The notes under the pieces were generated by a model. The model ran no database searches. It had not been told where the DNA came from and was given only the letters and a program-made list of their open reading frames with translations. A program made the translations under genes and the position numbers. A stretch of DNA of 64,000 bases from a virus: positions 1 through 64,000 of IMG/VR virus record IMGVR_UViG_3300020034_000008. One strand, 5' to 3'. Shown here in pieces: positions 1-10,459 of this stretch; within the stretch, counting starts at the first letter, position 1, and the number at the start of each line of letters is the position of its first letter.

Positions 1-2
1 TT

Positions 3-257
3 CTAGCCTTCCTGTTCTGAAAGTAAACGATCGGCTGTATCTGCAGACTCGAACATATCAGCGGCAAGCTTACGCGCTTCGCTTGGTGAGAGGCTAAGCC
101 CCACAAGCTTGACGTCGGTAACATCGCCCGAAGGATGCTTAACCCACAGATCAAGCTTGACCCATGCCACAGAGCTATCAGCGTTCGCGGAAAGGTTAGC
201 GGCGACAGTAGGCAAGCCAGTAATTCCCGGAGGGTTCTTTTTCAGTTTGATTCTCAT
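3..257 (-). CDS. hypothetical protein (early arm)
   Basis: ORF 3..368; start moved to the ATG at 257 (MRIKLKK), which has AAAGGA upstream. Confidence 0.6.
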   Translation of the reverse strand: MRIKLKKNPPGITGLPTVAANLSANADSSVAWVKLDLWVKHPSGDVTDVKLVGLSLSPSEARKLAADMFESADTADRLLSEQEG

Positions 258-262
258 GGTAC

Positions 263-490
263 TTAATCCTTTGTCGTTGCGTACATTGAACGATCTGGAG
301 TGTTGCAGATAGGGGCATCGGTTGCCCACACACGGAAGTATTCCCCGACGCAAGCGCAGCAACCACAATTGATCTTAACGGTAACGATCCATCCTTGCTC
401 TGTGCCAAATACAGCAATGCGGCGCATGGGAGGGGATAGCGTGGCAAGAGCGGAATCAATTGCCTGCAGGTGCATATCGTTTGTGATCAT
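263..490 (-). CDS. hypothetical protein
   Basis: ATGA overlap with the upstream ORF; CGCC/CAC cysteine cluster. Confidence 0.5.
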   Translation of the reverse strand: MITNDMHLQAIDSALATLSPPMRRIAVFGTEQGWIVTVKINCGCCACVGEYFRVWATDAPICNTPDRSMYATTKD

Positions 491-681
491 GACACACGTC
501 CTTTGATGTCATCGGTGATAAACGGATCTGCAGACCACAACAGGATCTCACAGACAAGCCCTTTCCAAGCGAAGCTATTGCGCCGGTCAGACTTGAGAAT
601 CTTACGACCTTGCGCCTTGCTTACCTCGAACCTGCCATTGCTGGCGACGATAACCCAGCGCGCTTGAATTTTGTCAGTCAT
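487..681 (-). CDS. hypothetical protein
   Basis: 64-aa ORF, GAAAGG RBS-like sequence, tiles with neighbours. Confidence 0.6.
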   Translation of the reverse strand: MTDKIQARWVIVASNGRFEVSKAQGRKILKSDRRNSFAWKGLVCEILLWSADPFITDDIKGRVS

Positions 682-722
682 GGCTTCTATCTACCTTTCT
701 GTTCTAGGTTTCGTATCCCTGC

Positions 723-914
723 CTATGCCGACCTTCCTTTGGTTTTGATGAATGTGGGTGGGTGATCGAAAACGTAAACCGTTGCCTTAGCCTGGAAATC
801 ACTGGAGTAATAGCCGGTAGCCTCAGTACAAGCTTGTTCAGCTGTGTCTGCAGTAACGGTTATGATCTTCGAATAGTTCGCGCTATAGGTCCAGAGTACA
901 TAAAACTTTGTCAT
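723..914 (-). CDS. hypothetical protein
   Basis: ATG at 914 (MTKFYVLW) after GAAGGGA, downstream of a repeated promoter-like element. Confidence 0.65.
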   Translation of the reverse strand: MTKFYVLWTYSANYSKIITVTADTAEQACTEATGYYSSDFQAKATVYVFDHPPTFIKTKGRSA

Positions 915-928
915 GGTGGATTCCCTTC

Positions 929-982
929 GTCTGTCGTTTTCGGTACTGTATATAAGTACCACGATTAAGGGCCGACGGTTCA
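929..982 (-). promoter_or_regulatory. repeated early promoter/leader, copy 1 (TGAACCGT-N12-GTGGTACTTATA...ACCGAAAACGACAGAC)
   Basis: Same boxes and identical 12-nt spacer as 1770-1821; both copies are intergenic and precede a gene start. Confidence 0.65.
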
Positions 983-1019
983 AGTTATTTGTTTTATTTT
1001 GAGGCTACCAGTGTAGACA

Positions 1020-1244
1020 CTACTCGCGTTCAGCTGTGAAGGTATCATCTTCCTGTGCGTCGAAGATGACGACAGACACGCCAGCGGGGGCCATGGCACC
1101 AAGCATGTAGACGTGGGTAACAGACCCGTTGCAGATCTCGACCATGCTACCGTCAAGGCGAGGCCCCACGGTTTCGCAGGCAGGGTTAACAGTGGTAGCT
1201 GGCGACAGATACAGCGACAAGGCGAGGAAAAGCGTAGTCATCAT
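1020..1244 (-). CDS. putative secreted small protein
   Basis: Hydrophobic N-terminus (MMTTLFLALSLYLSPA), AGGAG RBS, Cys pair. Confidence 0.6.
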   Translation of the reverse strand: MMTTLFLALSLYLSPATTVNPACETVGPRLDGSMVEICNGSVTHVYMLGAMAPAGVSVVIFDAQEDDTFTAERE

Positions 1245-1329
1245 TGGAAGATCTCCTGTGCAATTGGTTATCTGATCGATTGTACAGTCTATAGGACCTA
1301 GCAGCGTTCTGCTAAGCCCGAAGGCTGTA

Positions 1330-1575
1330 CTAGCGACGTCCTAAGCGTAGCAAGCGCGCCGATGCTTTTTGCACGTCAAAGGCATGGCCGCTAGCCTCGA
1401 ATTGTCCAGAACGTTGATTTCCGTTTGGCGAGCGATAGGTATGGTCGCCAGCAGGTTGACGATCGTCATAAACGCGCCATGCGCGCTCCGCTCCGGACAG
1501 CAGTGTCGAGAGGCGATCTTGACGGATCGGGGAAAGATTCGTGAAACTGATCGCGGTCTGAATATCCTTGTACAT
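1330..1575 (-). CDS. hypothetical protein
   Basis: 81-aa ORF, GGAG RBS. Confidence 0.65.
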   Translation of the reverse strand: MYKDIQTAISFTNLSPIRQDRLSTLLSGAERAWRVYDDRQPAGDHTYRSPNGNQRSGQFEASGHAFDVQKASARLLRLGRR

Positions 1576-1611
1576 GATGATTTTCTCCGGTTTTGGCGAC
1601 GTTTACGTGCG

Positions 1612-1740
1612 TTACTTGGTGCAGACGGCGCGAACGGTGGACCACGAAACCAGGCCGAAAAGCCAACCGTTGATCAGAGCATTGCGGTATTCGACGGTTG
1701 CAGAACCCTTGATGAAAGTCACGATTTGCTGATTTGACAT
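1612..1740 (-). CDS. small hypothetical protein (42 aa, MSNQQIVTFIKG...)
   Basis: Translated manually; GGAG RBS; follows promoter copy 2; below the ORF-track cutoff. Confidence 0.6.
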   Translation of the reverse strand: MSNQQIVTFIKGSATVEYRNALINGWLFGLVSWSTVRAVCTK

Positions 1741-1769
1741 TTTGACTATCTCCGGTTCAAAGTGTTTCG

Positions 1770-1821
1770 GTCAGTCGTTTCGGTCTATGTATAAGTACCA
1801 CAGTTCAGAGCGAACGGTTCA
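1770..1821 (-). promoter_or_regulatory. repeated early promoter/leader, copy 2
   Basis: TGAACCGT-N12-GTGGTACTTATA followed by ACCGAAACGACTGAC. Confidence 0.65.
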
Positions 1822-1840
1822 CATTTCGTCGAATTATTTT

Positions 1841-2194
1841 TCAAGTCTCAACAATCGAGGTAACGATCCCGGTACCACTGGCGTCCAGCGTGTAGACTGT
1901 GGCAGTACCGTCATTATTGGCATAAACGAACGTCTTAGCGCTTCCTAGCGTGCCCAGCAGGCGGACCCAGCGCTTATGCTCGCCATCGGTCGCACACTCG
2001 CCACGTGTGTGGCAAGCGTAAAACTCTGCAGTGGCGCGAGTCTCGCACACACCAGGCTGGCCAGTGACGGCGCGAACGCCAGCGCACGTAAGCGCGGCAG
2101 GTGCAGTAAGCTTTACAGCCTGGACACTCGCGTCCGTCTCACTTGTGAAGGAAAGTCCGGAGGAAAGCAGACGGAGAATGAGATAGTTAACCAT
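1841..2194 (-). CDS. hypothetical Cys-containing protein
   Basis: 117-aa ORF, GAGGA RBS. Confidence 0.6.
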   Translation of the reverse strand: MVNYLILRLLSSGLSFTSETDASVQAVKLTAPAALTCAGVRAVTGQPGVCETRATAEFYACHTRGECATDGEHKRWVRLLGTLGSAKTFVYANNDGTATVYTLDASGTGIVTSIVET

Positions 2195-2204
2195 GGGTTT
2201 TCCT

Positions 2205-2345
2205 CTAGTCCGTTGACGTTGTGAGGCGAGCCAAAATCATCAAAGCCGCTAGTGTGTACTCTTCTCTTTCCTCTACTGACCGCGACAGATCAAAGGCTTT
2301 GATCGTCAAGGCAATCGCGCGAGAGAGAAGGCTTTCAGTATTCAT
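2205..2345 (-). CDS. small hypothetical protein (46 aa, MNTESLLSRAIAL...)
   Basis: Translated manually; fills the gap; no RBS; lies directly behind a sigma28-like promoter. Confidence 0.55.
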   Translation of the reverse strand: MNTESLLSRAIALTIKAFDLSRSVEEREEYTLAALMILARLTTSTD

Positions 2346-2352
2346 GATCTAT

Positions 2353-2379
2353 ACATCGGTAGGTGCGCGGGAAACTTGA
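2353..2379 (-). promoter_or_regulatory. sigma28 (FliA)-like promoter TCAAGTTT-N11-ACCGATGT
   Basis: Close to the TAAAGTTT-N11-GCCGATAA consensus with exact spacing; ATG 7 nt downstream. Confidence 0.55.
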
Positions 2380-2381
2380 GG

Positions 2382-2630
2382 CTACTTGTTTTTTCGGCGA
2401 AGTAATTCGGCGATCGCGTCTTTTTCGGTATCAGCGATCCACGAAGGGTTATACGAACCTGAAACTAAGATCTGTGCGTCAAGGTCGTGCCAACCACCGA
2501 TCCAAGACTCGGCAGCATTCTGGCGCTGTATGCGCGCGGTAGAACCGTCGCTGAATACCAGGATTGTCCAGGTGCCGTTAACAAGGTCACGAGGTGACCG
2601 CGATCGGCTGGTTAGAGTAACCTTGATCAT
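2382..2630 (-). CDS. hypothetical protein
   Basis: Start at 2630 (MIKVTL) lies within a 16-bp repeat shared with the adjacent gene start. Confidence 0.55.
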   Translation of the reverse strand: MIKVTLTSRSRSPRDLVNGTWTILVFSDGSTARIQRQNAAESWIGGWHDLDAQILVSGSYNPSWIADTEKDAIAELLRRKNK

Positions 2631-2650
2631 GTTACACATGGCAGAAAACT

Positions 2651-2941
2651 TTAGGTGTGCGGACAATCGCGGCGCATTTTGTCGCACAATCGACAAATAC
2701 GGGAATCATTGCGCTCTGTTACTTCGACGTCTGACAGCGAGATCCTGTGATCGTGAGGCACGGCATAGCCAGGGCGGATCAGATCGGCAATAGCCGCTGT
2801 TTCGCCACGAGTAGAACGGCCAAGCGGGCAACCACTGAAGGGGTGTCCGTCGCTGTCTACCAACCACGCGAGATAATTGGTTTTGCCGCTGTCAACGCCA
2901 AGCGGCGTATCGTTTCGCAATTCAATCTTGACCTTGATCAT
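2651..2941 (-). CDS. hypothetical protein, C-terminal CxxC
   Basis: Start at 2941 (MIKVKI), immediately after the upstream stop. Confidence 0.55.
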   Translation of the reverse strand: MIKVKIELRNDTPLGVDSGKTNYLAWLVDSDGHPFSGCPLGRSTRGETAAIADLIRPGYAVPHDHRISLSDVEVTERNDSRICRLCDKMRRDCPHT

Positions 2942-2942
2942 G

Positions 2943-3230
2943 TTACCAATCTCCGAAAGTGCAGACCGGTCTGCACTTGGACACGGCGCAAGAGTGTGCG
3001 CGAATGTCGCGGATACGCATAGCATCGGAATCCTTGCGAGCGCTGGACCACACGATCGGCTTTGCGCCGGAGATTAACTCACGGCAACGGGGGCAGGAAG
3101 GATCCTTGCGGCCAAAAGTCATGGTGCAAGTTTCAGAGTATCGCACCTTGGCCGGTTTCGGCGACAATGCTTTTAGCTCTGTCGCTGGCTTGCCTGGCAT
3201 CGGGTGTCTAGCGTCTGATTTGTTTAACAT
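2943..3230 (-). CDS. hypothetical Cys-rich (zinc-finger-like) protein, first gene of the leftward arm
   Basis: C..CPRC and HxC..C..C motifs. Confidence 0.6.
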   Translation of the reverse strand: MLNKSDARHPMPGKPATELKALSPKPAKVRYSETCTMTFGRKDPSCPRCRELISGAKPIVWSSARKDSDAMRIRDIRAHSCAVSKCRPVCTFGDW

Positions 3231-3245
3231 TACGAATAGATACTA

Positions 3246-3262
3246 TAGCACGGTCTGTGCCA
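3246..3262 (-). promoter_or_regulatory. sigma54 -24/-12 promoter TGGCACAGACCGTGCTA
   Basis: GG-N10-GC with TGGCAC; predicted +1 near 3236, just upstream of ATG 3230. Confidence 0.65.
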
Positions 3263-3277
3263 TTTCGCCGAATTGTC

Positions 3278-3290
3278 TAAATGCTTGATT
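3278..3290 (-). promoter_or_regulatory. IHF-binding site AATCAAGCATTTA
   Basis: Exact WATCAANNNNTTR match at about -42 to -54 of the sigma54 promoter, the usual position. Confidence 0.55.
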
Positions 3291-3395
3291 TAACTAGGCT
3301 GTCTTAAACGTAGTGTGTAAACATTTACGCAATTTTGCCTTAAACCGCGCAACCTGTTACGCATATGTGCGCAATCTTATACGCACTATCATATC

Positions 3396-3411
3396 GGGCA
3401 TCTTATTTGCA
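3396..3411 (+). promoter_or_regulatory. divergent sigma54-like motif GGGCATCTTATTTGCA
   Basis: GG-N10-GC with TTGCA. Confidence 0.45.
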
Positions 3412-3600
3412 TTAGCTATAGGCAGTCAATACAGTGTACGTTACTCGTACTACACTACAGTCTCTAGCAGTACCCTGCCAGGCAGGCTAACGACGGTGGC
3501 AAGGTGCGCGTAAAAGTCGCGGGGAGGGATAGGACCTAGGAGAGTCCTAAGGAGTAGTGAGAAGGAATGAGAAGGAATGCTGTGTCGGATGCTGCCCGTC

Positions 3601-3616
3601 TGCACTAGTTATGCCA
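3601..3616 (-). promoter_or_regulatory. sigma54-like motif TGGCATAACTAGTGCA
   Basis: GG-N10-GC. Confidence 0.5.
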
Positions 3617-4069
3617 CTATCTCTAAACCCGATCATGCTCTTGATGCGTTTAAACGATGGATCATTTGTTGCATAACGTGTTTTATATGCATTATTCGTT
3701 TATGTAAGGGCAAATACAATTGACGCAAATGCTAAAAACGTCAAGGTTGAACGTTCTGGCCCTAGTTAGTAGCAGAGTGCCACTTTCCGCATGACGCGTT
3801 GCCTGTTTCGTCCTATTGCGTTTTAACCCTATGCGCACTTTTTTGCGCACATAAACAAATCATAGGGTTAGCAACGATGAATTCGCGGCGCGTTAAGTGC
3901 GGCTAGGTGAGGGTAAGCAGAGTTATAGCTCTCTGCATTACACTCATTATCAATCTATAGTCACCATAAGTTTGCGCAAAGTGCGTATGTGGACCCGTGT
4001 GGGTTCAGGCGGGCGAGGCGGACAGAAGTGCCACTTCTGCACCATTAGTGTGTATATGCACCAATGCTA

Positions 4070-4086
4070 TGCATGGGCTATGCCAA
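4070..4086 (-). promoter_or_regulatory. sigma54-like motif TTGGCATAGCCCATGCA
   Basis: GG-N10-GC. Confidence 0.5.
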
Positions 4087-4147
4087 CCTACGTATACACA
4101 CAAGGTGTGCCTATTCGTATGTGTAGCATGCTGTGTAACATAGAGAA

Positions 4148-4163
4148 TGTTTCACGTGCAACG
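4148..4163. promoter_or_regulatory. parS-like site 1 (TGTTTCACGTGCAACG)
   Basis: The reverse strand, CGTTGCACGTGAAACA, has 1 mismatch to the chromosomal parS consensus TGTTNCACGTGAAACA. Confidence 0.7.
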
Positions 4164-4188
4164 TAGGCGAAGACTCACCCTTGCGGTA

Positions 4189-4204
4189 TGTTGCACGTGG
4201 AACA
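4189..4204. promoter_or_regulatory. parS-like site 2 (TGTTGCACGTGGAACA)
   Basis: 1 mismatch to TGTTNCACGTGAAACA; starts 41 bp from site 1. Confidence 0.7.
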
Positions 4205-4213
4205 GTATTTATA

Positions 4214-4330
4214 TGCACTATGTGTGCCAATGCAGTGTATTTTGTTTATATGCAGTGTTTATGCCAAGTGCCATCATTGCATTAAATGGGCCAAGCTAAA
4301 CGAATTGTGCTGTAAGCAATAGATGTGCCA
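4214..4330 (-). repeat. tandem array of four sigma54-like -24/-12 motifs
   Basis: TTGGCACACATAGTGCA (4214-4230), TTGGCATAAACACTGCA (4251-4267), TTGGCCCATTTAATGCA (4278-4294), TGGCACATCTATTGCT (4315-4330); spacing 37/27/37 bp. Confidence 0.7.
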
Positions 4331-4715
4331 TGACGCACCCCCACACCTTAACGCGTTATTTCTCTCGACGAGGACGGCTACCAGATGTTTTATAAATAAA
4401 AATCGCTCGTCTAACCCTTCACATGCTTCGTTTATACGAAACAACATGGAATTAAGAGGGTTCTGCTAGAAAATAGAAAAATATAAGAAAAATTCAGAAA
4501 AATATAAAAAATGAAAAATTGCTCAAACACGTACATATTGCGTATAAATGAAACAGAGTGCTTCGTATATAATGAATAAATGGGATAAAGGTTGCTAATG
4601 CACTGCTGGAAGGAGCCAGGGACGTTACGTAGACCTGTGTAGAAAAATGCCGACCCCTCTTCCCTTCTCCGCTATTTTCTGATAAACCATTAATCCAAGG
4701 ACACCAAGTCCTGTC

Positions 4716-5021
4716 TTGGAACCCAAGATGCGTTCTTCCCGCAAAAGAGTTAAACGCCGAGACCGGCGCAAGGCAAAGCAGACAGGGTATCGTCGTGCAG
4801 GGAAGACTTCTATGGGTTCGCACGTAGGTCACGGAACTTCTGGAAGTCCTGGTGGCCCACGGAAGTTACCTCTAAAGGTTATTCGACTCGATAAGAACAA
4901 AGTTGCAAAGCCATTGCAGAAACGTAAACCACTTATTGTTGAGGTTGCACCTGAACAAGAGAAAGAGAAATACTCTGTGAAGGCTACAATTGCAGAAATA
5001 CTTTCCGCGAAAGGTAAGTAG
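4716..5021 (+). CDS. highly basic (Arg/Lys-rich) hypothetical protein
   Basis: First rightward ORF; start uncertain. Confidence 0.55.
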   Translation: MEPKMRSSRKRVKRRDRRKAKQTGYRRAGKTSMGSHVGHGTSGSPGGPRKLPLKVIRLDKNKVAKPLQKRKPLIVEVAPEQEKEKYSVKATIAEILSAKGK

Positions 5022-9169: not shown

Positions 9170-9227
9170 TGACAGCCCAACAACAGCGCGAAAAGATTTA
9201 CCGGGATGCGCTTGTCGCGAAAGGTGA

Positions 9228-9887
9228 ATGCACATGAAACCCGCACGTCAGTTCGCGAACGAAATTGATCAGGCGCGCTTCGTCGACATATTGGGCATGG
9301 TTGAAACCGACCGTCGCGAAGTGCGCGCAGCGGCGTTGCGGGAGGCAGTTAAGGCACTGCGGTCGGCCGACTTCCTGGCGGACGGTTATCGCGCCGTAGT
9401 CGAGATGGCCGATGCGGCACATGAGTCTGTGTGCCCTTTTGATGCGACCAAGGTGGCCGACCGCGCGGAGCGAGGCGTGGGCTGGGAGTCACCGCCCGTG
9501 CAGCCATCGCCGCAACCAGAGCCCAGCCCGGAGTGGGCTGAATTTGAGGGCGGTGAAGTGCTGAGCCCCATCCCGGACGCGCCGGTACGGGGACCCAAGT
9601 GCACCTGTTGGGAAGGACTGGAGTTTGGAATTCACGCGTGCACATGTGGCCCACCCAAACCGCCCGTCCCCTCGCGCGCCGACGCCGAGGCCGACGAAAC
9701 AGAGGTGCGACGCTTAACCAACGACGCGGCCAAGAAACACGCGATTCGTTCGGTCCCCTCGTGCGCGGAGTTGATTGAGTTGATGTGTGCAAAACTAGGC
9801 TGCCCGGTAAGTAGCCAACTTGGCCGTGACCTGGCCGATGGCCTCGATGCGCTCATCAAAGCCGGGGCGGTGCGAAATGGCCTGTAA
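9228..9887 (+). CDS. hypothetical protein (GC-rich insert)
   Basis: 219-aa ORF with Pro-rich linker and CTC..CTC. Confidence 0.55.
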   Translation: MHMKPARQFANEIDQARFVDILGMVETDRREVRAAALREAVKALRSADFLADGYRAVVEMADAAHESVCPFDATKVADRAERGVGWESPPVQPSPQPEPSPEWAEFEGGEVLSPIPDAPVRGPKCTCWEGLEFGIHACTCGPPKPPVPSRADAEADETEVRRLTNDAAKKHAIRSVPSCAELIELMCAKLGCPVSSQLGRDLADGLDALIKAGAVRNGL

Positions 9888-9926
9888 ATGGTGTGGTCTC
9901 CTTGGTGGCTGCTGGCGGTGTAAGCC

Positions 9927-10181
9927 ATGAACCCGTCGGCGCTTGAGATTCTCCGGGCGTTCGCGAAGCAGGTTGCCAGCACCGACGAAGCCAGGAACTG
10001 GTTTATGGCCGCCCGCGCCGCGCTCGACGCGGCGGCGAAAGCGGAAGCCGAGCAACCGCCCCCGGCGCACATTGAGCGGTGCAACGCCATGGCCTGGAAT
10101 GGCGAGCGTTGCGTGATGGGCAAAGACGATGGGCACTCATTTCATGCCGCCGAGCGAAGTACGTGGCCGGTGCATCGATGA
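9927..10181 (+). CDS. hypothetical protein, paralogue A (MNPSALEILRA)
   Basis: N-terminal half duplicated in the next ORF; C-terminal C..C..H..H. Confidence 0.6.
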   Translation: MNPSALEILRAFAKQVASTDEARNWFMAARAALDAAAKAEAEQPPPAHIERCNAMAWNGERCVMGKDDGHSFHAAERSTWPVHR

Positions 10182-10459
10182 TCGCCCTGCGCGCCATGAA
10201 CCCGACGGCGATTGAGATTCTCCGGGCGGCGATGGAAGAGATTGCGCGCGACAGCATTGACCTCGCCTGGCAAAAGGACTTCGCCCGCGCCGCGCTCGAA
10301 GCGGCGGCGAAAGCGCCGGGTATTGCTGACAACAATGAGATGCACGCCGTTGCTTTGGCCGCTATTCAGCGGTGCGTGAACATCGGCCCGAATTCTAGAG
10401 AGACCGTCGCCGACGCTGTGCTGGTGGCCGTTGACGAATGGATGCGCGGTGGTAAATGA
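10178..10459 (+). CDS. hypothetical protein, paralogue B (..MNPTAIEILRA)
   Basis: ATGA overlaps at both ends; alternative start at 10196. Confidence 0.6.
   Translation: MIALRAMNPTAIEILRAAMEEIARDSIDLAWQKDFARAALEAAAKAPGIADNNEMHAVALAAIQRCVNIGPNSRETVADAVLVAVDEWMRGGK

Follow-up and report, generated by a model that had tools for sequence, protein, structure and literature searches.

A cluster of sigma-54-type sites, possibly a leftward promoter stack, between the divergent gene arms of an uncultured soil myovirus

The DNA stretch analysed here (the window) covers positions 1 to 64,000 of a linear viral contig of 74,330 bp in IMG/VR (IMGVR_UViG_3300020034_000008), with a completeness of approximately 72%. 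The phage is a myovirus, with terminase, portal, sheath and tail genes. An ATP-dependent ligase gene is also found on the contig, and the replication genes, encoding a helicase, a helicase loader, DnaB and a primase, are located at contig 62-74 kb. Near-identical DNA was detected only in two DNA runs of one soil metagenome sample and in no listed RNA run. The closest isolates, Bacillus phage BCD7 and the Streptomyces BRock-like phages, are about 33% identical in TerL and sheath. Searches with TerL, portal, ligase and the adjoining protease against IMG/VR, JGI metagenomes, GTDB genomes and isolate phages revealed no nearer kin, with matches at about 30% identity. A Myxococcus host, as envisaged in the initial annotation, is not supported by these comparisons, in which no link to a myxophage was found and the nearest isolates are the distant Bacillus and Streptomyces phages named above. 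The GH5 gene was also examined for a clue to the host, and its nearest Atlas clusters are mixed. The contig has a G+C content of about 45%, with a patch of 62-65% at window positions 9200-10400; the 219-aa ORF of this patch (gene 9228-9887) has no informative homologue outside its own record.

The feature under study is a 1.5-kb gap (positions 3231-4715) that separates minus-strand genes on the left from plus-strand genes on the right (Table 1). The left arm consists of small, tightly packed minus-strand genes down to position 1. A single base separates the stop codon of its first gene from the start codon (ATG) of the gene that comes next (2651-2941). A 15-mer, ACCTTGATCATGTTA (plus strand), is present at both 2620-2634 and 2931-2945, across two successive stop/start junctions of this arm. 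The second and third left-arm genes were considered as paralogues; this was rejected, as their proteins are not similar. In the right arm, all genes from 4716 to the contig end at 74 kb are on the plus strand. When read from the ATG at 4729 (4729-5021), the first right-arm protein is extremely basic and rich in arginine and lysine, and it might bind nucleic acid.

The absence of a credible ORF in about 1.1 kb of this region, as first described, holds for nearly all of the gap; the exception is a 48-aa ORF at 3577-3723. This is the sole gap ORF with a family match (phrog_11709, unknown function, E 2e-4), and the remaining short ORFs have neither a family match nor a ribosome-binding site. The start region of the 48-aa ORF, GAGAAGGAATG, is duplicated, and the minus-strand site at 3601 lies inside the ORF.

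Table 1. Features within and next to the gap between the gene arms (window coordinates; scores from the sigma-54 weight matrix described in the text).
Feature	Position	Strand	Score (bits)	Sequence and remarks
First left-arm gene	2943-3230	-		95 aa, Cys-rich, ATG at 3230, no family match
Sigma-54-type site	3247-3262	-	12.7	TGGCACAGACCGTGCT; GC 17 nt from ATG 3230
IHF consensus	3278-3290	-		AATCAAGCATTTA; 16 nt upstream of the -24 element of site 3247
Weak sigma-54-like site	3396-3411	+	8.9	GGGCATCTTATTTGCA; about 165 nt upstream of ORF 3577-3723
Small ORF	3577-3723	+		Candidate gene for a 48-aa hydrophobic, Cys-rich peptide; GAAGGA ribosome-binding site
Sigma-54-type site	3601-3616	-	13.1	TGGCATAACTAGTGCA
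Sigma-54-type site	4070-4085	-	17.7	TGGCATAGCCCATGCA
parS-like 16-mers	4148-4163, 4189-4204			TGTTTCACGTGCAACG, TGTTGCACGTGGAACA; 41 bp apart
Stacked site	4214-4229	-	17.7	
Stacked site	4251-4266	-	13.7	
Stacked site, weak	4278-4293	-	7.9	
Stacked site	4315-4330	-	13.3	
Phased A-tracts	4470-4519			Period 10-11, 35% G+C block; upstream of the stack in the leftward view
Weak sigma-54-like site	4581-4596	+	9.3	TGGGATAAAGGTTGCT; about 135 nt before the first right-arm gene, facing it
First right-arm gene	4716-5021	+		Small, very basic protein, no family match

Eight motifs resembling the -24/-12 elements of sigma-54 promoters had been reported between site 3247 and position 4330, seven on the minus strand and one on the plus strand, and all eight were confirmed in place and orientation. 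The start-to-start spacing of 37/27/37 bp in the four-site stack (4214-4330, minus strand) is likewise correct, as is the distance of about 1 kb from the stack to the first leftward gene, with its ATG at 3230. The GG-N10-GC geometry is exact in all eight sites, a TGGC start occurs in seven of them, and six conform to TGGCAY-N6-TGCW. The six good sites all face the left arm. Site 3247 is the promoter-proximal site of that arm; the other five are 370-1,100 nt away from the gene towards which they point, and the intervening DNA contains no credible leftward ORF. The leader predicted from site 3247 is only about 6 nt long and has no ribosome-binding site. The matrix scan returned one further weak plus-strand candidate at 3658.

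The clustering of these motifs, mostly on one strand, is well borne out by counts over the whole contig. Counted over both strands of the 74,330 bp, the pattern GGC[AC]Y-N5-NTGCW occurs 11 times, with eight of the occurrences at the array. The stricter TGGCAY-N6-TGCW occurs eight times in the window (six times within 3247-4330), as against 0.98 +/- 0.90 expected from dinucleotide shuffles, and none of 100 shuffles reached eight matches. The initial annotation had further predicted that a whole-contig scan with a sigma-54 matrix would show strong local enrichment. A weight matrix was constructed from 228 distinct sites in arrays of other phages, none of them from the window, and its six best positions among approximately 148,000 in the contig were 4214, 4070, 4251, 4315, 3601 and 3247, all in the array and all on the minus strand. 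Scores of the good sites range from 12.7 to 17.7 bits, compared with a median of 24 and a 5th percentile of 14.6 in the training set. In relation to the extended consensus YTGGCACGr-N3-TTGCW, a T at -15 is found in only two of the eight window sites. No window site combines TTGC with R at -20 as in the strict near-perfect form (TGGCAYG-N4-TTGCW, at least three in a row), and a strict triple-site pattern would miss the window array. The spacers between the half-elements differ in every copy, so that the conserved part is the bipartite core alone. An extended motif, TGGCAY-N6-TGCATATAAA, was also searched for in IMG/VR and set aside, as it gave chance matches without kinship to the window.

Several other elements are present in the same gap. 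The IHF consensus beside site 3247 is one of seven matches to this consensus in the window. The 74-kb contig has no parS-like 16-mers other than the two at 4148 and 4189, and 1 Mb of other array loci yielded none. The same pair (4148-4204) also forms a long predicted hairpin in the leftward RNA (-38 kcal/mol for 121 nt, z -2.7); the 16-mers may be bound by a host ParB or may simply represent this hairpin. The A-tract block at 4470-4519 is situated between the right arm and the stack, and an intrinsic bend is probable there. The block contains AGAAAAAT four times and is flanked by similar 13-mers, TGCTTCGT(T/A)TATA, at 4424 and 4559. Sigma-70-type promoters and terminators in the gap were at chance level, and Rfam gave no family match in 2800-5000. 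NtrC-type boxes were also at chance level, and adjacent matches with two mismatches at 4038 and 4057 are not convincing.

The parS-like pair and the AT-rich block of phased A-tracts raise another reading of the repeats, in which they are sites for a phage protein, serving as operators, as origin iterons or, with the parS-like pair, as part of a partition or packaging complex, and their likeness to sigma-54 sites is due to chance. Origins are often found at divergent junctions such as this one. The GCA-N7-TGC core is itself a short inverted repeat, several sites form fuller palindromes (GCAC-N5-GTGC), and the sites share features that depart from the sigma-54 consensus, such as an A after TGGCAY and the extension TGCAT(ATAAA). 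However, a matrix derived from the sigma-54-type arrays of unrelated phages selects exactly these sites, and their spacing matches that of the same class of arrays. The sites have a fixed, asymmetric orientation, and conservation of the bipartite core alone, with differing spacers, is unlike iterons. No ParB_N domain was found in the 74-kb contig. The replication genes are 60 kb away, and a better origin candidate lies next to them, at contig 68,399-68,465 (L120 6400-6466). There, the 218-aa ORF that immediately precedes the helicase-loader and DnaB genes contains a repeat array (period 30, 10-bp-phased units) that is a candidate for an iteron origin. Binding of the motifs by a phage protein is considered distinctly unlikely.

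Comparable arrays were sought in the IMG/VR viral collection using a design of two TGGCA-N7-TGCA units placed 8-30 nt apart. This two-unit pattern was found at 120 or more viral loci; a complete scan with the reversed pattern as control yielded 50. At least five motifs per 600 bp were present in 46 of the 118 loci fetched, compared with two of the 50 control loci, both of which are plain tandem repeats. Three of the 46 were coding repeats and were dropped, leaving 43 array loci in 20 DNA-level clusters, one of them large. At positions that the search did not constrain, these arrays agree with the published sigma-54 consensus: an A follows TGGC at a frequency of 0.96, Y comes next at 0.97 and then R at 0.92, while the first T of TTGC reaches 0.87 and a T before TGGC 0.63. 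A-rich positions are found further upstream. In the large cluster, the GG and GC elements are invariant and the spacers are variable. The original assignment of the motifs to the -24/-12 type is supported by these free positions. Judged from the exact GG-N10-GC geometry, the ranks assigned by a matrix built independently of the window, and the spacing and location typical of the class, the window sites are probably sigma-54 sites in nature.

Neighbouring sites on the same strand in these arrays are separated by 25-30 or 36-41 bp, with a trough at 31-35 bp. The two modes were seen in three sets (the big cluster, the 19 other DNA clusters and 88 new loci) with a search that permitted every value across the mode range. 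They are one helical turn apart, at approximately 2.5 and 3.5 turns, and the 37/27/37 spacing of the window falls on both. The two modes suggest that several complexes bind at once, which would be compatible with a platform or sponge component. Sites of the large marine group face one another in an interleaved layout at 20/26 bp, and the group of L138 (8236-8447) has nine sites in 210 bp with strands alternating at these distances. Another locus (L124, 18-256) carries eight sites with a 27-bp period at a contig end. A divergent-gap position was observed for 22 of the 30 array loci with both flanks called or, after dereplication, for five of 12 DNA-level clusters. The window gap has the same divergent layout, and no phage RNA polymerase gene was found in its contig. 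Of the 32 pattern matches in one 147-kb record (G001, locus L166), 30 are concentrated in a 10-kb region at 5.9-16 kb, where single sites are scattered among small ORFs in addition to a dense block; in its gap, leftward sites are on the left and rightward sites on the right.

A stricter pattern of three consecutive consensus sites matched 120 or more viral loci, compared with just 10 in the 596 Gb of prokaryote genomes searched. The stacking habit is thus viral rather than bacterial, and since bacteria almost never stack sigma-54 promoters, it is not ordinary promoter design. The 10 prokaryote loci (L331-L340, from GTDB) are mostly on MAG contigs of 12-45 kb from diverse phyla, while one is on an Actinoplanes contig of 549 kb; mis-binning of phage contigs may account for these loci. 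Seven cultured phages were checked and carry no array: HTVC115P, CRP-125, HMO-2011, CRP-3, CRP-9 and MQM1, which are relatives of the large marine array-bearing group, and YuA. Thus, no laboratory model was found.

The window array scores below the other arrays and includes two weak sites, as might be expected of a decayed array or of recombined promoter fragments whose function has been lost. However, six intact GG-N10-GC cores remain on one strand, the typical 27/37-bp spacing is retained and an IHF box stands beside the gene-proximal site, which makes decay very improbable.

Accounts of phage transcription usually invoke sigma-70 promoters, sigma factors made by the phage, or phage polymerases. 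Neither a T7-type RNA polymerase (PF00940, for which the positive control worked) nor a sigma-70-family gene was detected in the contig. Together with the lack of enrichment of sigma-70 promoters in the gap, this implies that the phage needs the host polymerase and another type of promoter. To our knowledge, sigma-54 is the sole bacterial sigma factor that is unable to start transcription without an ATP-driven activator. The AAA+ activator domain PF00158 gave no match in the 74-kb contig, which is 72% complete, and a sigma-54 domain was likewise absent from the contig. No regulator family was recognized among 54 small ORFs. Similarly, PF00158 was absent from five further records with arrays, including one with a completeness of 100%. 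Four of these five, the 100% complete one among them, were also searched for a T7-type RNA polymerase and have none.

On this evidence from sequence, there is about an even chance that the array represents real host sigma-54 holoenzyme sites that serve mainly as a leftward promoter stack. The promoter reading follows from the orientation of the good sites, all of which face the left arm, from site 3247, which abuts the first gene and is accompanied by an IHF box, and from the outward-facing sites of G001. Motif clustering, the ranking by a matrix from other arrays, the class spacing, the divergent-gap location and the precedent of phage YuA were also counted in its favour. Counted against it were the sub-consensus sites, the distance of five of the six from any gene, the almost absent leader at 3247, the lack of PF00158 in the contig and in five other array records, and the lack of enrichment of NtrC boxes.

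Under the promoter-stack reading, the array would be placed in the main control region of the phage, in the gap where the two gene arms diverge. Site 3247, with the adjacent upstream IHF box, would drive the left-arm operon (1-3230), whose small genes look early. Transcripts begun at 3601, at 4070 and in the stack at 4214-4330 would reach the left arm after crossing about 1 kb of untranslated DNA, the long hairpin at 4148-4204 included. Firing would require an AAA+ enhancer-binding activator, which would be supplied by the host. Since no activator gene is present in the 74-kb contig, leftward transcription would be coupled to a host activator, and hence to the physiological state of the host. 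At approximately 2.5 and 3.5 helical turns, the 27/37-bp spacing would place neighbouring complexes on opposite faces of the DNA, so that several polymerases could be poised together. What the sequences show directly is the motif, with its clustering, strand, spacing and position, and the recurrence of the class in other phages; from these we infer sigma-54 binding, promoter activity, the use of a host activator and simultaneous occupancy, as well as the opposite-face arrangement of neighbouring sites.

The initial annotation had proposed a different function, in which the array is a decoy or loading platform where host sigma-54 or its holoenzyme forms stable closed complexes that are rarely or never activated. 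In one variant, replicating phage DNA soaks up scarce sigma-54 and shuts down the host sigma-54 regulon, or stores polymerase. It is established biochemistry that sigma-54 closed complexes are stable without an activator, and the absence of an activator gene from this contig and from the five other records fits such a function. Near-confinement of the stacks to viruses (120 or more viral loci against 10 in 596 Gb of prokaryote genomes) and the remote position of most window sites from genes point in the same direction. Spacing modes one helical turn apart fit close packing of several bulky complexes, and the face-to-face 20/26-bp interleaving in the large marine group is a poor layout for productive transcription. 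However, a sponge needs neither a strand bias (six of six good sites) nor a proximal site with an IHF box nor the outward split of G001, and sub-consensus sites would be odd in a trap meant to bind tightly. The proximity of site 3247 to an ATG, its IHF box, the uniform orientation of the sites and the G001 split look promoter-like instead, and the decoy or platform was not retained as the main function; it is regarded as unlikely for the window. A trap version extended to all phage stacks, in which several holoenzymes are held as closed complexes on opposite faces of the DNA and the small sigma-54 pool of the cell is drained as phage DNA replicates, is also doubtful.

Viral contigs often carry arrays of this class, bacterial genomes almost never do, and the arrays follow a clear helical spacing rule. 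If phages set their main control region on sigma-54, infection would be tied to the signalling state of the host; alternatively, a scarce host factor would be captured by DNA alone. Should the trap reading be true, the host regulons for stress, RNA repair, motility and nitrogen would be silenced, or polymerase would be stored on the phage genome. With the window, the class gains a soil myovirus whose array is weaker, points in one direction and is mixed with parS-like sites.

Bacterial sigma-54 promoters, such as glnAp2, pspA, fdhF and nifH, are single, enhancer-dependent and paired with an activator. The window shares with them GG and GC elements 10 nt apart, TGGCAY at -24, TGCW at -12, an IHF box upstream of the proximal site and an orientation towards a gene arm. 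It differs in the number of sites, with six to eight within 1.1 kb and a four-site stack at 27/37 bp, in the lack of an activator gene or recognizable enhancer boxes, in the distance of most sites from genes and in the T at -15, which is mostly missing. The left end of phage T7 carries the tandem early sigma-70 promoters A1-A2-A3, which are about 125 bp apart and fire without an activator. The resemblance to the window lies in host-polymerase promoters arranged in a row before early genes, with a long untranslated leader; the T7 promoters, however, are of the sigma-70 type, wider apart and activator-free. Iterons and parS centromeres resemble the window in its oriented short repeats, its gene-free and partly AT-rich region and its two parS-like 16-mers. 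In contrast to such elements, the window core is bipartite with varying spacers, no initiator or ParB gene is nearby, the repeats are not near-identical and the replication genes lie at 62-74 kb.

Among phages, the closest published case is Pseudomonas phage YuA, for which a sigma-54-like promoter was reportedly described by Ceyssens in 2008. This single promoter has been confirmed by start-site mapping (PMC10914365). Like the window phage, YuA has no RNA polymerase of its own and uses a host sigma-54-type promoter; unlike it, YuA has no array, and its six scattered pattern matches are not above a reversed-pattern control. The initial view that no such phage element had been described agrees, for arrays, with a full-text literature search that found no describing paper; single sigma-54 promoters, however, are published for YuA (PMC10914365). 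The class of phage sigma-54-site arrays thus appears to be undescribed in print. Its other members, the arrays of uncultured phages (L124, L126, L138, L166), share with the window the motif, the two spacing modes and a gene-poor gap that is often between divergent arms, and they likewise have no activator or phage RNA polymerase gene. These arrays are near-perfect (median 24 bits), usually denser (5-13 sites per 600 bp) and often on both strands, whereas the window array is weaker, spread over 1.1 kb, nearly one-stranded and mixed with parS-like palindromes.
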